In this document: positions 29,071 to 40,300 of the stretch, piece after piece
How the letters are laid out: each line of letters begins with the position of its first letter
Numbering within the stretch: the first letter of the stretch is position 1
Assembly: GCA_028130375.1 (NCBI GenBank)
Contig: GCA_028130375.1_3658.1
DNA from: a phage
Direction: 5' to 3' (one strand)
Length of the DNA stretch: 64,000 nt
The notes under the pieces: model-generated
Databases searched by the model: none
Told to the model about the DNA's origin: nothing
Seen by the model: the letters and a program-made list of their open reading frames with translations, nothing else
Translations under genes and position numbers: made by a program

Positions 29071-30276
29071 ATGATTTTCATCTACGAACACTTCAAAACT
29101 CGTAAAGAAGCACGCGACCGCCGTGCAGAACTTGAGAAGAAGGGTTTCACATGTGCCATTGAGAAAGGCGACACAACCTGGACACTGGCAGTTGGTGCCC
29201 CAGAGTTGTTCGATCCTGACCGTGACAGCGTCTGCTACACCCGTGAGGATTTTGAAACCCGCGAAGAGGCCCGTTTATTTCGATACGGTCTGGAAGATAA
29301 CGGTAAGTACGCTATGATCTTAGATTTAGGCGAAGGTTCCGTTAAACGTTGGGGCGTGGTATACCCACTGTGTGTTGTTCACGGTGTGGGGTTCACTGGG
29401 GTAGCAATCAAGTCAGAAGAACCTTTAGTAGAAGTCAAAGATCCGGTGCTGGAGGTGGTGAGCAGTGTGTCTCAGCAACAGACTCGAAGCATCGAGCCTT
29501 TGGTAGTTATTTGTGGGGAACTCCTCCAGATCACCTGCAACGAAGGCATTTTTGAAATTCGCCGCAGCGAAAGTGAGGAAGTTTACCAGAAAGTCTTCGA
29601 CCATATCTCTGTTCAGGAATATGATGAGGCAATTGGTGAAATCCTTGTCTGGCTGGAACGCAAGAATGAGTTCACCACACTTGCAGACAACCTGATCATG
29701 AAAGATGGTAAGCTCTACTACTACGGTGTAGAGATGCGATCCACCATTGCAAAGAAAATTGAGAAAGATTATGCAGATGGAACACTGGATGACCGCTATG
29801 TGAAATTCCTCGTTCGCCTGCTACGCAATCCTTCTGCAAAATCTGTAAACATGCTCTACGATTTTATGCAGGCCAACGATATCCAGATTGCAGAAGATGG
29901 TCGAATCATTTGCTACAAAGGGGTTCAGTTTAACGGCAGCAAGTGGGTGGATTGGCACAGTGGTAAAGTTCCACAATACCAGGGTGCTTTTGTATCCATG
30001 CCTCGTAACTTTGTAGAGGATGATCCGGAAGCTGCGTGCTCCTATGGCTTACACTGCGCCAGCAAAGAGTATGCAAAGAGCTACGGCACTGTAATGACTG
30101 TTATGGTTGATCCTGCAGATGTGGTTAGTGTGCCATACCAACACAATAGCGCTAAGTGCCGTGCATGCCGCTATGAGATTGTAGTAGCTCCGGAAGCACG
30201 CAAAGATGGAGACCCTATTGAATATGTAGTTGATCGTGACGGTAACACTATCGACATTCTTTACGAGGAGGCGTAA
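29071..30276 (+). CDS. rIIB: rIIB-like protein
   Basis: Start moved to ATG 29071 after RBS ggagaca; C-terminal region matches T4 rIIB as recalled from memory (shared NPS.KSV..L.DF, MPR, CS.GLH..SK.Y, DVVS.P, AK.R.C.YE). Confidence 0.85.
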   Translation: MIFIYEHFKTRKEARDRRAELEKKGFTCAIEKGDTTWTLAVGAPELFDPDRDSVCYTREDFETREEARLFRYGLEDNGKYAMILDLGEGSVKRWGVVYPLCVVHGVGFTGVAIKSEEPLVEVKDPVLEVVSSVSQQQTRSIEPLVVICGELLQITCNEGIFEIRRSESEEVYQKVFDHISVQEYDEAIGEILVWLERKNEFTTLADNLIMKDGKLYYYGVEMRSTIAKKIEKDYADGTLDDRYVKFLVRLLRNPSAKSVNMLYDFMQANDIQIAEDGRIICYKGVQFNGSKWVDWHSGKVPQYQGAFVSMPRNFVEDDPEAACSYGLHCASKEYAKSYGTVMTVMVDPADVVSVPYQHNSAKCRACRYEIVVAPEARKDGDPIEYVVDRDGNTIDILYEEA

Positions 30277-31646
30277 TGGAAAAAGGGCAGTATGATGTAG
30301 GCACAGATGCTGCCCTCGTTGCAATCATGAGCGGTGAGAATGTCTTCGTTTCAGGACCCGCAGGTTGTGGGAAGACGTACCTCATCAACATGATCCAGTC
30401 AATGTATGGGGACTCTTGCATAACGGTTGCCCCGACAGGGGTAGCCGCTTTAAACGTTAATGGAGCAACAGCACACCGAACCTTCGATCTTGCAGCAGGT
30501 GTGAGCATGGAGTCAGACTGGACCGCAATAAGGGCAAAAACAGCAAAGCCTTTGAAAAGCAAGGCATTTACCATCCTAATTATCGATGAAATCTCTATGA
30601 TCCGCGCTGATAAGTTTATAGAGATGGATAGGAAACTCCGCTTCCTTCGAAAAAACGACAAACCTTTCGGAGGCATACAGGTCATATTGTTTGGCGATTT
30701 TTACCAGGCACCTCCTGTTGTCTCTTCTATGGAGAAGGAAGCCTATTTCAACTTCTACCATACGGACCTGTGTTGCTATACCGAATCTTGGAAAGAGCTT
30801 GACCTCCACAACATAGCCCTAATAGATCAGTTCCGACAGGAGTCTATTCGATTTGCCACAATGCTCAACTGTGTTCGTGAGGGTCGTCGCATAAAAGAGG
30901 TTGTAGCAGAACTTAATGCTCGCTGTTACAAAGGTGGTGTACCAACAGATGCTCTCACAATTTGCGCCACCAACAAACAAGCAGAGGAAGTGAACAGAAG
31001 GTTCTATGATGCCATCAACGCCCCAGAGAAGGTATACACTGGTGAAATGAAGGGTAAGTTTCCCTCCACCCTGCCAGTTGAGCAGGAGATGAAGTTGAAA
31101 ATTGGCATGAAAGTTATGATAACCGCCAACGATGTTGACCCGACGCACAAAGTACCTTATTATGTTAACGGAACACGTGCCACAATTGTTAAATTTAAGA
31201 ACAAGGCGGTGGTGGTAGAGCTTGAAGATGGAACACAGGTTGACATAGAGCAGAGGTTGTGGGAGAATAACGAGTATAAGCCATCTCAGAGATACAACAT
31301 TGCAGAAAGGAAGATGGAGAAGTTTATAGAGAGGGTAGTGATTGGGTCATACAAGCAACTTCCTCTGAAATCTGGGTACGCCGTAACATCTCATAAAAGT
31401 CAAGGACTTACGCTAGATTGTTACAACCTAGACCTTGGAAAGAACGGAGCTTTCTCTCCTGGGATGACGTATGTTGCTTTGAGTCGGGTTAAGACAATAC
31501 AAGGAATAAACCTGTTGCGTCCACTAAGAGAAGTTGACATTATTGTTGACCCGCGAGTCGTAGAGTTTTACAATACAACATTCCCTGACTTAGACAAAAT
31601 TGTCAGGAAAGATTTTGAAACCAGAGCCGAAGAGGGGGACGTATGA
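30276..31646 (+). CDS. SF1B DNA helicase, Dda/RecD/Pif1-like
   Basis: 456 aa; Walker A GPAGCGKTY, motif Ia TVAPTGVAA, motif II LIIDEISM, motif III GDFYQAPPV, motifs V/VI TSHKSQGLT and YVALSRVK. Confidence 0.85.
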   Translation: MEKGQYDVGTDAALVAIMSGENVFVSGPAGCGKTYLINMIQSMYGDSCITVAPTGVAALNVNGATAHRTFDLAAGVSMESDWTAIRAKTAKPLKSKAFTILIIDEISMIRADKFIEMDRKLRFLRKNDKPFGGIQVILFGDFYQAPPVVSSMEKEAYFNFYHTDLCCYTESWKELDLHNIALIDQFRQESIRFATMLNCVREGRRIKEVVAELNARCYKGGVPTDALTICATNKQAEEVNRRFYDAINAPEKVYTGEMKGKFPSTLPVEQEMKLKIGMKVMITANDVDPTHKVPYYVNGTRATIVKFKNKAVVVELEDGTQVDIEQRLWENNEYKPSQRYNIAERKMEKFIERVVIGSYKQLPLKSGYAVTSHKSQGLTLDCYNLDLGKNGAFSPGMTYVALSRVKTIQGINLLRPLREVDIIVDPRVVEFYNTTFPDLDKIVRKDFETRAEEGDV

Positions 31647-31984
31647 GTTTGTGGAGAAATATAGTTAACTACGTGTGTGGCAATCCAACTCCTGAAGAGA
31701 AGGATGTTGTGATTCACGATTTTACTAAAAGATCCCGTGAAAAAGATCTACTGTTAACAAAGGTGACTGATAAAGACCCTGCAGCAGGGGACTGGGCAGG
31801 TTTTGCGTTTACATTGGACAAATACACCTTTAACAAAGGTGACTACCTTGTTGTGGATTTTAACGAAGACATTGAGGGTGCTGAACCTTACTATCAGACC
31901 CTTATTGTTGCAGGGTGTGTTAATCTATCTGCAGGTATGCACAGTTTGATTCTTTTTGAGCTTGACTCTGAAGACCTTGAGTAG
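31643..31984 (+). CDS. Hypothetical protein
   Basis: 113-aa ORF, ATGA overlap with helicase stop. Confidence 0.45.
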   Translation: MSLWRNIVNYVCGNPTPEEKDVVIHDFTKRSREKDLLLTKVTDKDPAAGDWAGFAFTLDKYTFNKGDYLVVDFNEDIEGAEPYYQTLIVAGCVNLSAGMHSLILFELDSEDLE

Positions 31985-32045
31985 TAAGATGTGAGTATAA
32001 AGGGGAGGCCTCCTCCCCACAAAAAACTAAGGAGAGCACCAAACG

Positions 32046-33371
32046 ATGAGCAAAACCAAATTAGAACTTACCTGGATAGGTAAAAACGAGCGCAAAAAGT
32101 TAGAGCCCCACATTTTGTTAGAAGATTCTAGCAAATCTTACCACAGCCAGAAAGTGACCGAAAACGATATTTTTGATAATAAACTGATTTTTGGAGATAA
32201 CTTATTAGCATTGAAGGCGCTAGAGCAAGAGTATGCAGGCAAAGTGAAGTGTGTTTACATAGACCCACCATTCAATACCGGGAGGGCTTTTGAGCATTAC
32301 GATGATAGCCTGGAGCATTCCATTTGGCTGGGCTTAATGAGGGATAGGTTAGAAATAATTCGTAATCTTCTAAGTGATGATGGGGTAATATTCGTTCACT
32401 TAGATGATTGCGAAATGGCGTATTTAAAAGTTTTGATGGACGAGATTTTTGGTCGTGCAAATCAGTTAAATACCATATCGATGACCACAAATTCCCCTTC
32501 GGGATTTAAGGCAACAGGAGCCACAGTTTTCTCCACAGCAAACTTTTTGCTTGTATATGCAAAAGATCGCACCCAGAAACCGCTTAACAAAATCTATATA
32601 CCTAAAGGGTATGATACAGGATATAACAAATACCTATTAAACCCGGATGACCATTATAAAAATTGGACGTGGTGCGGTATTGCCGATGCGTTTGCAAAGG
32701 CCAATGGCTATAAAGATGCAAAAGAAGCCAAGAAAAAACTGCCTGATACATTCGATGATGAATTAGCACAATTCGCAATTGATAATGCAGAACGTGTATT
32801 TCAATCTGTTGCAATTGGTGGTGGTGCTAAAATAAAGAGAAAAGAAACTATCGAGAAGTCAAAGAAAGATAGGGATAAGGTTTATGTACATCCAAATGAG
32901 GATGTTGAAGGATTTTATATCGCAAATGGTAGGCAAATGGTCTTTTACTCCAATAGGCTTTTGGAAATTGACGGTGAGATGCAACCTGCGGAACTAATAA
33001 CTGATGTTTGGACAGACATTAGTTGGAATGGAATAGCAAATGAAGGCGGCGTTAGTTTCAAAAATGGGAAAAAACCAGAAGCGCTTTTGAAGCGGATTTT
33101 CGAAATGTGCACGCGAGAAGGCGATTTGGTATTGGATTCATTCGGTGGTTCTGGAACTACTGCTGCTGTAGCTCATAAGATGAAAAGACGCTGGATCTCA
33201 ATCGAGCTAGGTGATCATTGTCATACCCATATTATTCCGCGCTTGGAAAAAGTGATCGATGGCGAAGATCAAGGTGGTATTTCTAAGTCTGTAAACTGGC
33301 AAGGTGGTGGTGGCTTCCGTTATTACAAACTTGCCCCGGCCTTAGTTGCGAAAGATAAGTCTGATCAATAA
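32046..33371 (+). CDS. DNA methyltransferase, amino-MTase type (N6-adenine or N4-cytosine), beta-class order
   Basis: 441 aa; catalytic motif IV VYIDPPFNTG precedes AdoMet motif I DSFGGSGTTAAVA. Confidence 0.75.
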   Translation: MSKTKLELTWIGKNERKKLEPHILLEDSSKSYHSQKVTENDIFDNKLIFGDNLLALKALEQEYAGKVKCVYIDPPFNTGRAFEHYDDSLEHSIWLGLMRDRLEIIRNLLSDDGVIFVHLDDCEMAYLKVLMDEIFGRANQLNTISMTTNSPSGFKATGATVFSTANFLLVYAKDRTQKPLNKIYIPKGYDTGYNKYLLNPDDHYKNWTWCGIADAFAKANGYKDAKEAKKKLPDTFDDELAQFAIDNAERVFQSVAIGGGAKIKRKETIEKSKKDRDKVYVHPNEDVEGFYIANGRQMVFYSNRLLEIDGEMQPAELITDVWTDISWNGIANEGGVSFKNGKKPEALLKRIFEMCTREGDLVLDSFGGSGTTAAVAHKMKRRWISIELGDHCHTHIIPRLEKVIDGEDQGGISKSVNWQGGGGFRYYKLAPALVAKDKSDQ

Positions 33372-33375
33372 AGAG

Positions 33376-33690
33376 TACAATCAAATGATGAAACGTTATA
33401 AACCATACACTTTTGAAATCGATTTCGAACTTGACGATATGTTCACTGTGGAAGCTCAGGCAGTTGTCCAGTTGCCAGACCCAGAGTGTCGTGATTCTGA
33501 TGTTGACTATTATGGATTTAGACAGATCACTGATGTGCATGTTTACCACAACGGTGAAGAGGTGGACTTCCACAAACTGCCAAACGATATGCGCCACTCA
33601 ATTTACAAACGTGCAGCCCGTGAACTAGAGTCCTATCTTGATGCAGCGACGACAGCAGCTGCATTTGCCGAAGAAGTGGGAGGTTTCTGA
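33376..33690 (+). CDS. Hypothetical protein
   Basis: ORF trimmed to ATG 33376 to avoid overlap with the MTase; about 104 aa. Confidence 0.4.
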   Translation, partial: YNQMMKRYKPYTFEIDFELDDMFTVEAQAVVQLPDPECRDSDVDYYGFRQITDVHVYHNGEEVDFHKLPNDMRHSIYKRAARELESYLDAATTAAAFAEEVGGF

Positions 33691-34085
33691 TGATTACAGA
33701 TGTGAAGATTGTCCAATACCACTTAACCAAGTTGGAAGATGCTGAGAAAGAGCTTGCAGAAGTTCTGAATAGTGGATATACTTTGCTATCATGCGCCTGC
33801 TCAGACACCTACGCTGTGTGGACACTTATCAGGAAGGAAGAGCCTGCAGGGATCTTGGTGCCAAACCCTAAGATTATTAGTGAGGTGGATGACTACCCCC
33901 AGGACGGCCTGCCAGAAGGCTGGGAAGTATGGGAAGGTGGTGAAAACCCTGCACCAGGTAAGTGGGTAAAATACAAACTACGTAGTGGTGCACAGTACGC
34001 TGACTACTCTGATGACCTAGACTGGAGTCATTCTTCACCAGGATCATCTGCAAGTTCATATGATATCGTTGCTTTTCAGGAATAA
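33690..34085 (+). CDS. Hypothetical protein
   Basis: 131-aa ORF. Confidence 0.45.
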   Translation: MITDVKIVQYHLTKLEDAEKELAEVLNSGYTLLSCACSDTYAVWTLIRKEEPAGILVPNPKIISEVDDYPQDGLPEGWEVWEGGENPAPGKWVKYKLRSGAQYADYSDDLDWSHSSPGSSASSYDIVAFQE

Positions 34086-34097
34086 GGAGAGGGTGTT

Positions 34098-34580
34098 ATG
34101 TCAGATTTTATGTGGAAAGTAGGCTATGCCACTCCTGAAATGTGCGAGGCTTGCTTTGTGAAAATAGGCCGCGAGGATATCGACAAAGTGATCCTTAAGT
34201 TTCGTGATGTGGCTGTGATCGGCAACCGAGTGCTTAAGCACTTAAAGAATCTGAAGCTCACTAAAAAGAAGTTCTTCGGGCTTTTCGAAGAGAAAGTTGA
34301 TGCTTGGACCCATTGCATTCAGGAAGCTAAATCTCACTACAGTGCTATCGTTACTCCAGAACGGGTAGCTAAGATGGAAGGATTCATTAACAGCACAGAA
34401 TTTGAGTGTCTGAAAGCTGCACTCGATAGTTATCCGAAATGCCTTAAGCACTTGGACAAGTATGCAGAAAAGGATGGGGAAATGTATCTAACCCTGGACG
34501 CATATTATGAGATGCAAGAAATTTTAAATTTAGATTTGACATTGGTATCCACCGAGTATACAATAGGTATCCGGGTTTAA
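34098..34580 (+). CDS. Hypothetical protein
   Basis: 160-aa ORF with RBS ggagagggtg. Confidence 0.5.
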   Translation: MSDFMWKVGYATPEMCEACFVKIGREDIDKVILKFRDVAVIGNRVLKHLKNLKLTKKKFFGLFEEKVDAWTHCIQEAKSHYSAIVTPERVAKMEGFINSTEFECLKAALDSYPKCLKHLDKYAEKDGEMYLTLDAYYEMQEILNLDLTLVSTEYTIGIRV

Positions 34581-34586
34581 CACTAG

Positions 34587-34614
34587 GCCCTGCCCGAAAG
34601 GGTGGGGCTTTTTG
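34587..34614 (+). terminator. Rho-independent terminator (gccctgcccgaaagggtggggc + T-run)
   Basis: GC hairpin with gaaa loop then ttttt; identical 22-bp hairpin at 44754-44775. Confidence 0.65.
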
Positions 34615-34631
34615 CATTAGGAGACAGCAAA

Positions 34632-35396
34632 TTGAAATTTATCTACAAAGAACACTACCACAAAGGTGTTGTGTGGAGTCTATTTGACGGGTCTGGTGGT
34701 GCAGTCATTGACTGGGCAAAAGCTGGGTACCTGTGCCTGTGCTTTAATGCAGAAGGCGCTGATCACGGCAGTTATGCAGAGGTGATCACCGATCATCCCA
34801 ACATTCACTATGTGGACTATTGGATTGACCCGTGGTTCCCTCAGGAAACTTTTTGCATGTATCCGGCTCCAGATTTTATTCTTGCATTTCCTCCGTGCAC
34901 GCATTTAGCGGTATCAGGTGCTGCACATTTTAAGAAAAAGCTGGCTAAGGACCCCATGATCCAAATTAATGCTGTAAAGGATGCTCGGGTTGCGGAAGAG
35001 CTGGGAGAGATTTACGATTGCCCGTGGCATGTAGAGAATCCTGTGGGTGTTATGTCCACACTGTGGCGCAAACCTGATTACCGTTTTCACCCTTCGGATT
35101 ATGGCGGGTATTTACCGGAAGATGATGTAAACCCATGGTTTCCTGAATTTATAGCTCCACGTGATGCCTATCCAAAAATAACTTGCGGCTGGATAGGTAA
35201 TGGATTTATAATCCCAGCCACAAAACCTGTCCCGCAAATAGTTGACGCGGTTAGCGGGTATTCCATGCAACACGCCAAGCTGGGTGGAAAGAGTGCAAGA
35301 ACGAAGATGATTCGAAGCCTCACACCACGTGGCTGGGCAAAAGCCGTATTCCTAGCAAACGAGCCTGTAGTAAGGAGCAGAATTAATGGGAAGTAA
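34632..35396 (+). CDS. Divergent C5-cytosine methyltransferase-like protein
   Basis: Start placed at TTG 34632, 7 nt after aggaga; motif I-like LFDGSGGA, PC-motif-like AFPPCTHLAVSG, ENV-like HVENPVG; short and atypical (PCT rather than PCQ). Confidence 0.5.
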   Translation: MKFIYKEHYHKGVVWSLFDGSGGAVIDWAKAGYLCLCFNAEGADHGSYAEVITDHPNIHYVDYWIDPWFPQETFCMYPAPDFILAFPPCTHLAVSGAAHFKKKLAKDPMIQINAVKDARVAEELGEIYDCPWHVENPVGVMSTLWRKPDYRFHPSDYGGYLPEDDVNPWFPEFIAPRDAYPKITCGWIGNGFIIPATKPVPQIVDAVSGYSMQHAKLGGKSARTKMIRSLTPRGWAKAVFLANEPVVRSRINGK

Positions 35397-37464
35397 ATTT
35401 ATGGCATCTGCATACAACCGTTTCGGTGAGCCAAACCCGAAAGCAACTAAGTATAAAAGTGGGGGAAGTGTGAAACGAGACTATCGTGATGAAAAAGAAG
35501 TTGAAACTGTAGAGACTGTTTTAGAAAATACTAAAATTGTCCCTGTCCCACAACAAAATATCGGTCTGATGGCTGCACAATATTTTGGTGTGCGATCAGC
35601 ATTGTCACAAGAAGACGGTGTGACAGTCACTGCAACATATTTCCCATATTACGACCGCTACGGAAATCTGTCCGGTTTCAAAAAGCGTGACTGGACTATT
35701 CCTAAAGAACAAAGGGGCCACTTCTCCGTTGTTGGCATCGTAAAGGCCAACTCCCAGATGTTTGGTCAAAAGCTGTGTGCATCTTCCAACAACCGTAAGC
35801 AGATTAACGTTTGTGAGGGAGAAGGTGATGTTATTGCAGCATGGCAGGCTGCATATCAGATACAAGTAAAAGGGATTCTCACCAACGCTAAAGCCCCGGC
35901 AAAGGTGAAGCAGTGGGCTAAAGAGGTCCAGGACGGGATCGACGCAGTTATCAACGGTGGTGATCTGGCAGGAAAACCCTGCCTGCCTTTTGTTGGAATT
36001 AACTGTGGATGTGCAAACGCAGTAGATACTTTTGCAAACAATGAGAAGTTTATCCGTAGCTATGGAACAGTTGTACTGGCAATGGATAACGATGCAGCTA
36101 ACGAGGTAGAGAAGCAAAAACACGTCATTAAAGGTGTTGAGGCCACGCACAATATCGCAGCATTTTTGATGGCTGATAACGTTTACCACGTAGAATACCC
36201 TGGTGAAGTAAATGACCCTGACGGGGTAAAAGATATCCGTGACATGCTGAAGGCTAAAAAGCTGGAAGATATTGTCAACATGTTCCGGCATCCTGTTAAA
36301 TATGTGCCTGATGCTGTGTCGGATTTAGAAGACTTCTCTATCGAGTCTTTGCGGAAAAAGACTTCCAACGGGGTAGATATCAGCGCAGAGTTCCCAAAAC
36401 TGCAAAAAATGCTAAAAGGCTTGCACAAAGGGACACTCGTAATGCTTACAGGGCCATCAGGGGGCGGTAAAACAACTGTAGCTAAAAAACTGGAACATTG
36501 TATTGCAAGATACCTAATGGACCCGACATGCCCGAAGGCTGATGACTATGAAGAGGATGATCGTCTATGTATGATCCATCTTGAGGAGGACCCAGAGGAA
36601 GCAATTAACTCCTTGTATGCAAACCAGTTAGGGTTTGATGTTAAAGAGTTTGTTGAAGATCCTAGCCAGTTTTTAACTGATCAAGAACACGCAGAGATTC
36701 ACCAATCATGGGCAAAAGCTGGAAAAATCAAAGTGTTCAAACATTTCGGGTCTATTCCGGTGGATGAGTTGATTACCAAGCTTAAGCAAATGGTTTGCCT
36801 GTACCATTGCCGTTATATTGTGCTGGATCACCTGTCCATGGTAATTTCAGGGCTTAATGTTAAGGATGAGCGAAAAGAACTGGACATGGCTATGACTCAG
36901 CTGGCTGCGTTTTGTAAGCAGTTTAACGTGTTTATCTTGGTGATCGCTCACCTCAAACGTACAGAGATTGTGCCTCCTAAGGACAAGGATGGTAACCCGT
37001 TACCTTTCTGGTATCCTGTGCGAAAAGAGAATTTGCGAGGATCGGCGGGGCTTGAACAGTTGAGTTGGGTAGTCATAGGTGTCGAGGCCGAAGAAATGGT
37101 GGATCGTTCTCGTGGACGTGTCCGTCTGGTAGGTCTTAAAAACCGTCCAGCAAAAACTCTAGGTATTGCTGACACTTTGGTTATGGACCCGCACACAGGT
37201 AAGTTCCATGATGCCAGTAATTGGTACTGGGACAAAGAAATGCAAATGTTTACAGACGGAGAAGGTGGGGAGGTTGTTTGGAGACCTCAAGCTATGTTTG
37301 AGGATCAGGAGCATGCAGTTGTAGAAACACCTATGGGCAAGGTTGTGGCTGATAAGGTTGTAACTCCTACTGTTAAGCCTGTTGACACGCAGGAAGACCT
37401 CCAGTACGATGATCCATCCTCTGACCAGGTCCCTGGTTTTGAGGATGATGAAACGCCTTTTTAA
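35386..37464 (+). CDS. Primase-helicase (TOPRIM primase + DnaB-like helicase, T7 gp4-like)
   Basis: 692 aa; TOPRIM CEGEGD and MDNDAAN; Walker A GPSGGGKTT, Walker B-like IVLDH; acidic C-terminus ending DDETPF. Confidence 0.8.
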   Translation: MGSKFMASAYNRFGEPNPKATKYKSGGSVKRDYRDEKEVETVETVLENTKIVPVPQQNIGLMAAQYFGVRSALSQEDGVTVTATYFPYYDRYGNLSGFKKRDWTIPKEQRGHFSVVGIVKANSQMFGQKLCASSNNRKQINVCEGEGDVIAAWQAAYQIQVKGILTNAKAPAKVKQWAKEVQDGIDAVINGGDLAGKPCLPFVGINCGCANAVDTFANNEKFIRSYGTVVLAMDNDAANEVEKQKHVIKGVEATHNIAAFLMADNVYHVEYPGEVNDPDGVKDIRDMLKAKKLEDIVNMFRHPVKYVPDAVSDLEDFSIESLRKKTSNGVDISAEFPKLQKMLKGLHKGTLVMLTGPSGGGKTTVAKKLEHCIARYLMDPTCPKADDYEEDDRLCMIHLEEDPEEAINSLYANQLGFDVKEFVEDPSQFLTDQEHAEIHQSWAKAGKIKVFKHFGSIPVDELITKLKQMVCLYHCRYIVLDHLSMVISGLNVKDERKELDMAMTQLAAFCKQFNVFILVIAHLKRTEIVPPKDKDGNPLPFWYPVRKENLRGSAGLEQLSWVVIGVEAEEMVDRSRGRVRLVGLKNRPAKTLGIADTLVMDPHTGKFHDASNWYWDKEMQMFTDGEGGEVVWRPQAMFEDQEHAVVETPMGKVVADKVVTPTVKPVDTQEDLQYDDPSSDQVPGFEDDETPF

Positions 37465-37522
37465 TGTTTAACAAAGAGTGGGAGGGGTAGTACAACCGCC
37501 TCCCCTTTAAGGAGAACTGTAT

Positions 37523-40300
37523 ATGAGCATGTGGTCGTTCGATTTTGAGTCATCCGGTTTGCTGGAAGACCCAGATCTTTATTATCACTGCGGTCTGTTT
37601 AAAGAGCTGAATAAGAACCGTTTTATGCTGTTCCTTCCTCTAAATGACCGCACACACTACTCCGAGGAGGATATGGAGAAGGCTAAGAACTTTATTCTGG
37701 CAAAGAAAACTCTTTATAAAGATTTTGAAGTTCGCATAGCAGATTTTTCGGAGTTGGAAGGTTGGCTCACAGGCAATTCCGACTGGTCACCAACAGCTTT
37801 GAACTGCCATAACTGCTACAGTTATGACTTTATGCTGATGGAAAGATTATCCGGTATTCATTTTGATATGTTCCGTGATCCTAAATGCATGGGGACTATC
37901 AACGACCACCAGGTTAACCTGTTTGATACGTTGGCGATGAGCCGAATCTTATGGCCTGATCGCCCTTTACCAAAAGGTTGTCCTGACTCCGTATTCAACC
38001 CGGTTACTAAGAAAATGCAGCCTGTTGGTCCTCACGGCCTTATGGCATGGGGCTACGCCCTTGGTAACCAGAAAGTTCAAATTGATGACTGGCGCGATCT
38101 TCCGTTGTGGAAGTATGTGGATCGTGTATTCGAGGACGTTATCATCCAGGAGCTGCTCTGGAAAGAGCTGGTAGCGGAATCAAAAGGTGTATTCTACGGC
38201 AAATCTGACATGCAGAACTTTATGTACGATCCTGCCAAAGAGAAGCCGAAAGGGTTCAAGAAGATCACCTGGAAGAACGCATTGCGCCGGGGTATGCTGC
38301 AACACTTCCTGATGGAGCTGCAGGCCCGTCAGGGTGTGTATTTTGACATAGATGGAGCTATTGCTTTACGTGACCGTTGCGATGCGTGGATGAAAGAAAT
38401 CGCTGATCGTGTTGAACCGCAACTACCTTTAAAAGAGCTGTCAATGTCTCAGCGGCCCAAGTTCCCTGAAAAGCCGTTTAACCAAGATGGGACAATCTCC
38501 AATAATGGTTGGAAATGGTTAAAAGATAAGCTTGGCTATCCTGTAGATATGAGCGCTTTAGAGTTCAAAGCCCCGCCTAAGCGAGCATTTACCTCTACAG
38601 GAGATGTCAGTAAGATGGGGATAAAATGGTGTGAAGAGATGGGCTGCAAAGACCCCGATAAGATGGCTGATTTCTTGAGAGGCTATATTAAGGGCACCTC
38701 CACACCACAACCTTTACCTAAAGAGCTAATGGATCAGGCAATAAGTGATCTACAGCAGAAGCGAATGCCGGACTGCAAGATACCTATGAAAATCAGCAAC
38801 CAGGACGACATTAAGCGATACCTGATCAGTGCTGGTTGGCTTCCAACAATGTGGAGAACTAAGGATGTAACTAAAGACAGCAAGAAGAAAGCTCTACCTG
38901 ATGCAGATGTTGATGCACGAGTATATGCATATATGGACGAGCTTTTAGAGTCAGAGTATTGTGACCTGATTATCAACTTCTGGAACAAAACTGATGCTAA
39001 GTTCCAGACAACCGTGCACAAGTTCCGAAGCTTTCCTAACTCCGAAAGGATTAAAAAGGAAGTATTCGGGAAAATACGTAGAAAAGCTAGGGCACTTATT
39101 ACTTCTCCGCAACTGAAAGATACGTTTGGACACCTATGCCCTAATCTTGAAAAATTGAACGGAGAGATGGCTAAAGATATCGTCTTGTGGTTATCATTGC
39201 GAAACCGCAGATCGGTCCTTGATCCAATCAAGGAGGATAAGGTTGATACTGGTCTTCTTAATCACCCACGTTTGAAGATTGACCATAAGCTTCCTGCTAA
39301 AAGTTCTGGATTAACAAACACTTCCCGACAGAAACACAGTATTTGTGCAAACATGCCTAAACCATCTCCTAAAGTGGTTATGGGTAAAGAGATGCGTAGT
39401 CTGTGGGGTGTTCCTCCAGGATACTTTGAGATCGGTATTGACGGGTCCAACTTAGAGCAGCTTATCGGGGCTTGGGGTGCCTTTGAGTTCGACAACGGCC
39501 TGTATTACGATGTTGTAAGTAACGGGGACGCACACCAAAACAATGCTGAGGCATATACAAAAGTAGCAGGTAGAGAGGTGTCTCGTAACGACGGTAAACC
39601 TATCACGTATGGGGTTATGTATGGGGCACAAAAAGATAAAGTTGCAGATATGCTGGACATCTCTCCAGAGTTGGGACAAAGGGTAATCGATGCACTCTGG
39701 GATGCCAACCCTGGTCTTAAGGGGCGTAAAGAAGATCTGGAGAAATTCTGGGAAGCAACGGGTAAGAAGTTTATCTACTCTTTTGATGGTCATGCTATCT
39801 GGACCCGATCTAAACACTCTTTACTTAATGCATACCAACAAAATGGCGGTGCATCGTTGTGTGATTTAGTTGGGATACTCATGCACCACCAAATGGTGAA
39901 GCGTGGGTGGTACGATGAAGGTGTCCGTCGTATTATTTATTACCATGACGAATATCAGCTTCAAGTCCCTGACACACCGAAGTATAAGACTGTGTACACC
40001 TTCGACACAATTGAAGAACTGGAAGCATTTAAGGCAGAACAGGAGGCCAAACTTCATGTGTTCGACGGTCATAAGTACAAAAAGGCACGCAAAGATGAGG
40101 ACGGAAACGAAGTAGTTGACAGGGACGGAAACACGGTGTACGATCCTATCCTGAACGATGACGGAAAGCTTGAGCTTATCTGGAGCCCTGTGGGTGAAAT
40201 GGTGGTGCATTGCTTCTGGCAAGCTTCTAAAATGATGGGAGTCCCGTTCCAGATCACAGGTGAATACCTGTGTGGTCGTAATTGGGGTGATTGTCACTAA
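37523..40300 (+). CDS. DNA polymerase, family A, with 3'-5' exonuclease domain
   Basis: 925 aa; Exo I FDFESSG; motif A-like IGIDGSNLEQL, motif B-like RNDGKPITYGVMYG, motif C YYHDEYQL. Confidence 0.9.
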   Translation: MSMWSFDFESSGLLEDPDLYYHCGLFKELNKNRFMLFLPLNDRTHYSEEDMEKAKNFILAKKTLYKDFEVRIADFSELEGWLTGNSDWSPTALNCHNCYSYDFMLMERLSGIHFDMFRDPKCMGTINDHQVNLFDTLAMSRILWPDRPLPKGCPDSVFNPVTKKMQPVGPHGLMAWGYALGNQKVQIDDWRDLPLWKYVDRVFEDVIIQELLWKELVAESKGVFYGKSDMQNFMYDPAKEKPKGFKKITWKNALRRGMLQHFLMELQARQGVYFDIDGAIALRDRCDAWMKEIADRVEPQLPLKELSMSQRPKFPEKPFNQDGTISNNGWKWLKDKLGYPVDMSALEFKAPPKRAFTSTGDVSKMGIKWCEEMGCKDPDKMADFLRGYIKGTSTPQPLPKELMDQAISDLQQKRMPDCKIPMKISNQDDIKRYLISAGWLPTMWRTKDVTKDSKKKALPDADVDARVYAYMDELLESEYCDLIINFWNKTDAKFQTTVHKFRSFPNSERIKKEVFGKIRRKARALITSPQLKDTFGHLCPNLEKLNGEMAKDIVLWLSLRNRRSVLDPIKEDKVDTGLLNHPRLKIDHKLPAKSSGLTNTSRQKHSICANMPKPSPKVVMGKEMRSLWGVPPGYFEIGIDGSNLEQLIGAWGAFEFDNGLYYDVVSNGDAHQNNAEAYTKVAGREVSRNDGKPITYGVMYGAQKDKVADMLDISPELGQRVIDALWDANPGLKGRKEDLEKFWEATGKKFIYSFDGHAIWTRSKHSLLNAYQQNGGASLCDLVGILMHHQMVKRGWYDEGVRRIIYYHDEYQLQVPDTPKYKTVYTFDTIEELEAFKAEQEAKLHVFDGHKYKKARKDEDGNEVVDRDGNTVYDPILNDDGKLELIWSPVGEMVVHCFWQASKMMGVPFQITGEYLCGRNWGDCH

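Follow-up and report, generated by a model that had tools for sequence, protein, structure and literature searches.

Here we describe two genes in a 64,000-nucleotide stretch of phage DNA (contig GCA_028130375.1_3658.1 of GenBank assembly GCA_028130375.1; the whole stretch is called the window below), which derives from a Vequintavirus, an rV5-like lytic Escherichia coli myovirus, with 99.7 to 99.9% identity to phages inoa, slur16 and WalterGehring (Bas51). An earlier note on this DNA had placed two different DNA methyltransferase-like genes in its replication module, a description that holds, coordinates included: helicase, primase/helicase and DNA polymerase genes adjoin them. The first gene, open reading frame 1 (ORF1; 32046..33371, + strand), encodes a 441-residue orphan β-class amino-methyltransferase, recognized as a C-terminally truncated type III Mod by its matches to PF01555 and PADLOC MTase_III and by its identity to an E. 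coli Mod. The second, ORF2 (34632..35396, + strand), starts at a TTG codon and encodes a short, 254-residue Dcm-like C5-cytosine methyltransferase. Both frames are intact, and a motif scan of all 115 window ORFs of at least 100 residues revealed methyltransferase motifs in these two only. Public phage records already identify both genes and their classes, under the labels "putative N6 adenine methyltransferase," [quoted passage not shown] and "Dcm-like C5 cytosine methyltransferase," and some records name ORF1 "modification methylase BamHI"; in this respect the earlier finding restates annotation. The ORF2 family is, in addition, already characterized experimentally. The host origin of ORF1, its clean truncation and the boundaries of the cassette that carries it were not found in the literature searched.

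In ORF1, a DPPF motif (nt 32262-32273, aa 73-76) stands ahead of FGGSG (nt 33141-33155, aa 366-370), as the earlier note had read it in calling the gene a 441-residue amino-methyltransferase. This order, motif IV and then motif I, is that of the β-class, with the recognition region between the two motifs. The protein matched Pfam PF01555 (N6_N4_Mtase) at 145.1 bits (E = 4e-42; gathering cutoff, 26.7 bits) over profile positions 1 to 216 of 221, and matched PADLOC MTase_III (PDLC03636) at 1.5e-205 over model positions 2 to 444 of 575 only. Its E. coli homolog spans positions 2 to 572 of the same model and is longer by 126 residues; what ORF1 lacks is the C-terminal ∼125 residues (profile positions 445 to 575). 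Among solved structures, the closest in sequence are Mod subunits of type III systems (6k0w, 1.4e-28; EcoP15I, 2.1e-24), and the N-terminal region of ORF1 aligns to residues 52 to 138 of the EcoP15I Mod. Thus, ORF1 shares the β-class order, the PF01555 core and the N-terminal and central recognition regions with the EcoP15I Mod (PDB 4zcf) and with the E. coli Mod WP_024226319/P0273. Unlike both, it is an orphan in a lytic phage, with no adjacent res gene and with ∼125 C-terminal residues gone; among the window ORFs, profile searches revealed no Res-like frame adjoining it, and its neighbors are phage genes. As judged from sequence, ORF1 is a type III restriction-modification mod gene captured from a host.

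Homology searches with ORF1 returned nearly exclusively bacterial proteins, of ∼570 to 600 residues and at 60 to 77% identity. The E. coli protein P0273 (567 residues) is closer, with 96% protein and 95% DNA identity. The two differ by 15 substitutions over 438 residues, none of which falls at residues 226 to 362, and so the middle of the protein, which holds the recognition region in this class, is unchanged relative to the host. The E. coli mod lies directly upstream of a gene for a 912-residue ResIII-family protein that matches PADLOC REase_III at 8.9e-191. This Mod–Res pair sits in an island at tRNA-Sec, which also holds a mad1-like helix-turn-helix (HTH) gene, a DrmD-like SNF2 helicase and AbiD/AIPR genes. 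An Acinetobacter homolog of ORF1 (72% identity) shows the same layout of SNF2, cargo, Mod and Res with different cargo. Close copies of mod were present in 24 of 5,426 complete E. coli genomes; a near-identity search retrieved 29 E. coli genomes in all, 5 of them with a more divergent allele. The literature searched held nothing specific on the E. coli Mod accession.

The donor island itself (E. coli 2014C-3011, 5062284-5071633) combines constant elements, namely the mad1-like HTH gene, the DrmD-like SNF2 helicase, the type III Mod and Res, with swappable cargo between helicase and Mod (AbiD and AIPR in E. coli; AAA_21 and DUF4276 in Acinetobacter). This helicase (99% identity) also occurs in other E. 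coli strains, where its partner is a different Mod allele; that allele aligns over no more than about half the gene, at ∼80% identity, and the difference is probably in the recognition region. The layout recalls Eco86II and BspHIV, which have been described as three-gene type III systems. The PGAP label "mads1" on the first gene and the PADLOC hit to a DrmD-like SNF2 raised MADS/ARMADA II as a candidate identity, which we rejected: the composition of ARMADA II differs and both Mod and Res match type III profiles, and we therefore class the island as a type III system within a composite island.

The captured cassette spans 32033..33381 (+ strand), as delimited by megablast and alignment, and is homologous to the chromosomal mod gene of E. 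coli at 95% DNA identity; when the window was compared with E. coli genomes by megablast, 32033-33363 was the only part matched. Alignment to the E. coli gene shows that the phage has lost 11 bp near 33361, a deletion that shifts the frame and leads to a stop at 33369-33371. The E. coli homology then runs ∼20 nt more, up to the ATG (33388) with which the next phage gene begins. That gene (33388..33690, + strand; bas51_0071 in Bas51), of function not known, matches phrog_4240 at 1.1e-32, and the cassette is inserted at its start codon. A short repeat, CAAACGATGA (32040..32049, + strand), marks the left junction and includes the ATG of ORF1; its counterpart at the right junction, CAAATGATGA (33382..33391, + strand), includes the ATG at 33388. 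The Vequintaviruses Pr121LW, 366V_SA_NWU and MiataMamis are free of the cassette. In cassette-free phages, the ATG within the left repeat opens the phrog_4240 gene; in Pr121LW this start codon stands exactly where the ATG of ORF1 stands here. The start of the E. coli mod gene carries a string similar to the junction repeats. Together, the repeats at the cassette ends and this string point to arrival of the ∼1.34-kb segment by what would be a microhomology-mediated insertion.

A different right junction is found in the ECP26 (MK883717) lineage. There, the Mod sequence extends to the same KDK residues and then passes into a second copy of the upstream gene's last residues (LDSEEDLE), which gives a 447-residue form; the hairpin of the upstream gene comes next. 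The synonymous divergence (dS) from the E. coli gene is 0.19 and 0.21 for the two phage copies, compared to 0.32 between them. The ECP26 and window junctions are consistent with either one old capture followed by rearrangement or two captures. As to the phrog_4240 gene, its product gave weak matches to C-terminal parts of the "DNA methyltransferase" PHROGs phrog_1573 (1.4e-5) and phrog_2060 (7e-3). A comparison with the C-terminal domain that ORF1 lacks relative to the E. coli Mod revealed no real similarity save for a 12-residue junction remnant.

ORF2 lies 1.26 kb downstream of ORF1, in agreement with the ∼1.3 kb of the earlier note, and all three C5-methyltransferase-like motifs that the note had named are present: FDGSGG (nt 34683-34700, aa 18-23), PPCT with Cys89 (nt 34890-34901, aa 87-90) and ENP with Glu135 (nt 35034-35042, aa 135-137). 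The TTG start just after a terminator was also borne out. An AGGAG ribosome-binding site (34619..34623, + strand) stands 8 nt upstream of the TTG, the Bas51 annotation uses the same start (34632), and a terminator scan found a terminator-like hairpin of 11 pairs (7 of them G-C) with a loop of 4 and a following T-run at 34585..34610 (+ strand), just upstream of the gene. The mechanical ORF list opens ORF2 instead at GTG 34602, a codon within the hairpin. At its 3′ end, ORF2 overlaps the start of the primase/helicase gene (35386) by 11 nt. A σ70-like site (34536-34564; TTGACA, 17 nt, TACAAT; 11 of 12 matches) lies within the 3′ end of a phrog_12900 gene, ∼20 nt upstream of the hairpin. A promoter directly before a terminator-like hairpin is odd; the hairpin might be a 5′ stem-loop of the ORF2/primase transcript, or the arrangement might be due to chance: shuffled sequence has promoter-like sites at least as often as this region does.

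ORF2 matched PHROG 757 ("DNA methyltransferase") at 3.4e-87 (residues 10 to 261, profile positions 3 to 226 of 247). The family is large: 3,555 homologs of 210 to 260 residues, forming 1,025 clusters at 50% identity, were recovered, and members occur in 1,506 phage records, including Drexlerviridae, Dhillonvirus, Krischvirus, Phapecoctavirus, Klebsiella phages and others. In a 29-member alignment, C89 (within PPC), E135-N136-P137, K182 and a C-terminal RSLxPR are invariant, and FxGxG is invariant or nearly so; the residue after the cysteine is T or D, and the one following it D, H or N. ORF2 alone gave no significant match in PADLOC or PDB sequence searches. PF00145 was touched weakly by 20 of the 29 family members (best, 1.3e-6), and a profile search with ORF2 yielded only a hit at E ∼0.1, to DNMT3B, an established active C5-methyltransferase that has PCN at the aligned position. 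Structure and family context are needed for the assignment of ORF2, which has the fold of a C5-methyltransferase. The canonical enzymes M.HhaI, M.HaeIII and E. coli Dcm (PF00145) have 330 to 470 residues, PCQ and ENV, compared to ∼254 residues, PCT and ENP in ORF2, which, unlike them, appears to have no large target-recognition domain. No QxRxR is visible in it, and only ∼40 to 60 residues are available for recognition.

A relative with experimental data is the Dcm of phage K42 (711 bp), which was identified as triggering retron Ec86 (10.1101/2023.08.16.553469). The genome of K42 is 95.4% identical to that of KarlJaspers (Bas06), its Dcm was shown by mass spectrometry coupled to liquid chromatography (LC-MS) to produce 5-methylcytosine (5mC) on multicopy single-stranded DNA (msDNA), dependence on a CCWGG site was found, and superposition on DNMT3A assigned its active site to C82, E128, K175 and K176 (10.1101/2023.08.16.553469). 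ORF2 is 54% identical to the Bas06 Dcm over its full length (E = 2e-86). The two belong to the same family (phrog_757), have PPCT in common and both resemble the DNMT3A catalytic domain; C89, E135 and K182 of ORF2 align to C82, E128 and K175 of K42. ORF2 differs in having 18 more residues, mostly N-terminal, and I183 where K42 has K176. Residues 190 to 222 also differ ("GYSMQH" in ORF2 versus "NPGW" in Bas06), so that the recognition site of ORF2 need not be CCWGG. ORF2 most likely produces 5mC at a short motif, which by analogy with this relative is possibly CCWGG-like.

Taken as a whole, the data are best explained if ORF1 and ORF2 are functional orphan methyltransferases with which the phage modifies its replicating DNA, a reading to which we assign a probability of roughly 0.6. 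In this reading, an ancestor of these phages acquired mod from a type III Mod–Res system in an E. coli defence island, and the gene was inserted at the start codon of a phage gene through illegitimate recombination. ORF1 may then place on phage DNA the mark by which the donor system protects itself. The EcoP15I structure paper describes a Mod that dimerizes via its N-terminal and methyltransferase domains, with Mod2 a stand-alone methyltransferase, and a C-terminal domain (aa 539-644) of one Mod protomer that contacts Res extensively. The segment missing from ORF1 corresponds by position to this C-terminal domain, and in the E. coli Mod the C-terminal part is modeled as a confident α/β unit (predicted local distance difference test scores of ∼78 to 91 at residues 450 to 530). 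Because the N-terminal region, methyltransferase core and host-identical central region are retained, ORF1 should write the donor's mark, and, without the segment at the position of the Res-contacting domain, it would be a stand-alone modifier. The benefit would be immunity to one restriction system, present in ∼0.5% of complete E. coli genomes. For ORF2, a member of a very common minimal phage C5-cytosine methyltransferase family, 5mC would block m5C-sensitive nucleases. An anti-restriction role, of ORF1 against the donor type III system and of ORF2 against m5C-sensitive enzymes, appears to be the best-supported reading.

Several observations weigh against this reading. In the BASEL study, the Vequintavirinae were exceptionally susceptible to all six restriction systems tested, two type III systems included. 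Transposon insertions in Bas54 were tolerated at 78 of 92 sites in the ORF1 homolog and at 35 of 42 in the ORF2 homolog; both are non-essential, and the adjacent primase/helicase and polymerase are essential. Some Vequintaviruses thrive without ORF1. Some type III Mods are inactive without Res, so that activity of a Mod by itself cannot be taken for granted. No sequence match to the C-terminal domain of EcoP15I was obtained with the corresponding region of the E. coli Mod, and so the equivalence of this region to the Res-contacting domain is one of position only. ORF2 alone reaches no Pfam (PF00145 included) or NCBIfam threshold. Finally, the published Bas51 methylome called only N6-methyladenine (m6A or 6mA), and its GATC activity maps to bas51_0176 and to neither ORF1 nor ORF2. 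The susceptibility in the BASEL study, the dispensability in Bas54 and the existence of ORF1-free relatives imply that any protection is narrow and site-specific. Of the proposal in the earlier note that the phage carries more than one modification to evade restriction, the anti-restriction function is thus partly supported, in a narrow and still conditional form, and the susceptibility and the non-essentiality just described count against broad protection. Retrons sense related phage methyltransferases, which therefore also carry a known cost. The literature searched held nothing specific on 5mC or McrBC in Vequintaviruses.

Among the alternatives, the one that fares best, unlikely though we judge it, is that ORF1 and ORF2 serve the phage's own biology (replication timing, packaging, gene expression or strand discrimination) and not restriction evasion. 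Such a role would suit two genes within the replication module, one of which runs into the primase/helicase start, in a subfamily unprotected from the restriction systems tested; both genes are, moreover, dispensable on K-12, as accessory regulators would be. However, ORF1 is nearly identical to the Mod of a restriction system, its predicted recognition region is unchanged, and its cassette is optional, being missing from close relatives. A Mod copy in an optional cassette is more in keeping with an accessory gene for anti-defence than with a core regulator, and no regulatory phenotype is known.

Less probable again is that ORF1 is a decaying remnant of a truncated and frameshifted Mod without activity. 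The 11-bp deletion, the frameshift and the premature stop that removed ∼125 C-terminal residues relative to the E. coli gene would suit decay, as would the dependence of some type III Mods on Res and the phages that lost ORF1 or never had it. Yet its PF01555 domain is complete, and the ratio of nonsynonymous to synonymous substitution rates (dN/dS) is 0.046 between two phage copies, at a dS of 0.32 that is similar to that of neighboring phage genes, and 0.073 relative to E. coli. These low ratios indicate that truncated ORF1 has been kept under strong purifying selection within phages. The 441- to 447-residue form is found in 87 phage records at ≥90% protein identity, and the second junction type, in ECP26, also closes the protein cleanly.

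The least likely alternative, which we judge very unlikely, is that ORF2 is inactive or has altered chemistry, as the earlier note suggested from PCT in place of PCQ and as its unusual shortness might imply, since the catalytic cysteine and glutamate and FxGxG are conserved, the residue after the cysteine varies within the family and is N in DNMT3B, dN/dS between Vequintavirus copies is 0.027 and the PPCT-bearing Dcm of K42, related through Bas06, makes 5mC.

For ORF1, our reading as a functional orphan methyltransferase can be carried further, tentatively and at somewhat less than even odds, to a purpose-trimmed stolen antidote: a Mod taken from a composite island (SNF2 helicase, variable cargo, Mod and Res) that keeps the exact host recognition region, has lost the Res-docking domain and would pre-methylate phage DNA against that island without joining the host restriction complex. 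In this picture, the enzyme may write N4-methylcytosine (m4C), not the annotated m6A, and the two junction types suggest a cassette that was reshaped or acquired more than once.

As to the modified base, m6A and m4C are both candidates from sequence, and the annotations all say N6-adenine. Type III Mods modify a single strand of a short asymmetric site, and the DPPY/F motif is common to those that form m6A and those that form m4C. Type III members that form m4C and have an extra SF2 helicase gene 5′ of mod have been described, namely Eco86II (GAGCC, E. coli) and BspHIV (CGCCC, Acinetobacter) (PMC8259958). ORF1 has the DPPY/F motif IV in common with these, and its bacterial homologs in E. coli and Acinetobacter show the same layout, with an SNF2-type helicase gene 5′ of mod-res. 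No direct sequence link between ORF1 and Eco86II or BspHIV was found, and NCTC86 is absent among the E. coli genomes that carry this Mod or its helicase. We considered tying ORF1 to the m4C system Eco86II and rejected this: NCTC86, F9792 and B4103-1 are not among the E. coli genomes with the Mod or the SNF2 helicase, and it is the layout alone that is common. The product name of ORF1 presumes a base specificity and is, with both bases still candidates, an annotation trap.

Bas51, whose stretch corresponding to 32000-35400 is 99.9% identical to the window, has two further adenine-methyltransferase-like genes outside the window, bas51_0176 and bas51_0200. A Bas51 "N6 adenine methyltransferase" was reported to methylate GATC and to trigger retrons Asa1 and Squ1 (PMC12548924). 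The retron-escape mutations of that study (D69G, D79G and T83P) fit bas51_0176, which has D69, D79 and T83 ahead of its NPPY motif, and do not fit ORF1. We therefore rejected ORF1 as the experimentally characterized GATC and retron-trigger enzyme: the mutations fit only bas51_0176, a 177-residue NPPY protein encoded outside the window. Like ORF1 and ORF2, bas51_0176 is an orphan methyltransferase of the same phage lineage, and its sites are fully methylated; it is nevertheless a gene and class different from ORF1, though both are annotated "putative N6 adenine methyltransferase." This shared product name is a second annotation trap.

In wild-type Bas51, the methylated adenines number 1,405 at GATC, 509 at GTAC and 576 at other sites, compared to 35, 511 and 349, respectively, in the T83P mutant (PMC12548924). 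The Bas51 genome contains 703 GATC and 258 GTAC sites, and comparison of these counts with the methylated adenines indicates that methylation at GATC and GTAC is essentially complete. Beyond the GATC enzyme, at least one further adenine methyltransferase must be active in Bas51. For m6A at GTAC (509 to 511 of 516 adenines), a candidate is bas51_0200 (272 residues, with motifs EPSAGRGSF and NPPF), which fits a palindromic 4-mer modified on two strands better than does a type III Mod such as ORF1. ORF1 might account for some of the other Bas51 sites, or might make m4C, which would go uncalled in a 6mA-only methylome. Observed-to-expected ratios of sites (GATC, 1.0; GTAC, 0.6; CCWGG, 0.65 to 0.85) are uninformative on specificity. 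As a separate observation, GTAC occurs less often than expected (observed-to-expected ratios of 0.59 for Bas51 and 0.64 for the window) despite the ∼99% m6A implied in Bas51 virions.

The provenance of ORF1 provides a concrete, testable phage–host pair, in which ORF1 faces a single, identified type III system of E. coli, and ORF1 exemplifies how a phage can retain a restriction enzyme's modifying half alone. It bears, in addition, on host-range prediction for rV5-like phages used against Shiga toxin-producing and avian pathogenic E. coli (STEC and APEC), strain types in which the donor island occurs.

The neighboring genes are those of a replication module. A Pif1/Dda-like helicase gene (30276-31646) borders ORF1, the primase/helicase gene (35386-37464) borders ORF2 and the DNA polymerase gene (37523-40300) follows. 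Region 31600-37500 was matched by 122 phage records, among them the Escherichia phages inoa, slur16 and WalterGehring (the last being Bas51 of the BASEL collection), which agree with it at 99.7% identity from end to end. The DNA polymerase gene is unbroken in the window; its Bas51 counterpart (69933-74283) is annotated as separate segments joined together, and homing endonuclease genes lie within and in front of it. More than 12 records labeled "Campylobacter phage" (MG065658-MG065690; A12a, A141, A13b, C5, C7 and others; host, C. jejuni) are 97 to 99% identical to E. coli Vequintaviruses here and are probably mislabeled or contaminant phages.

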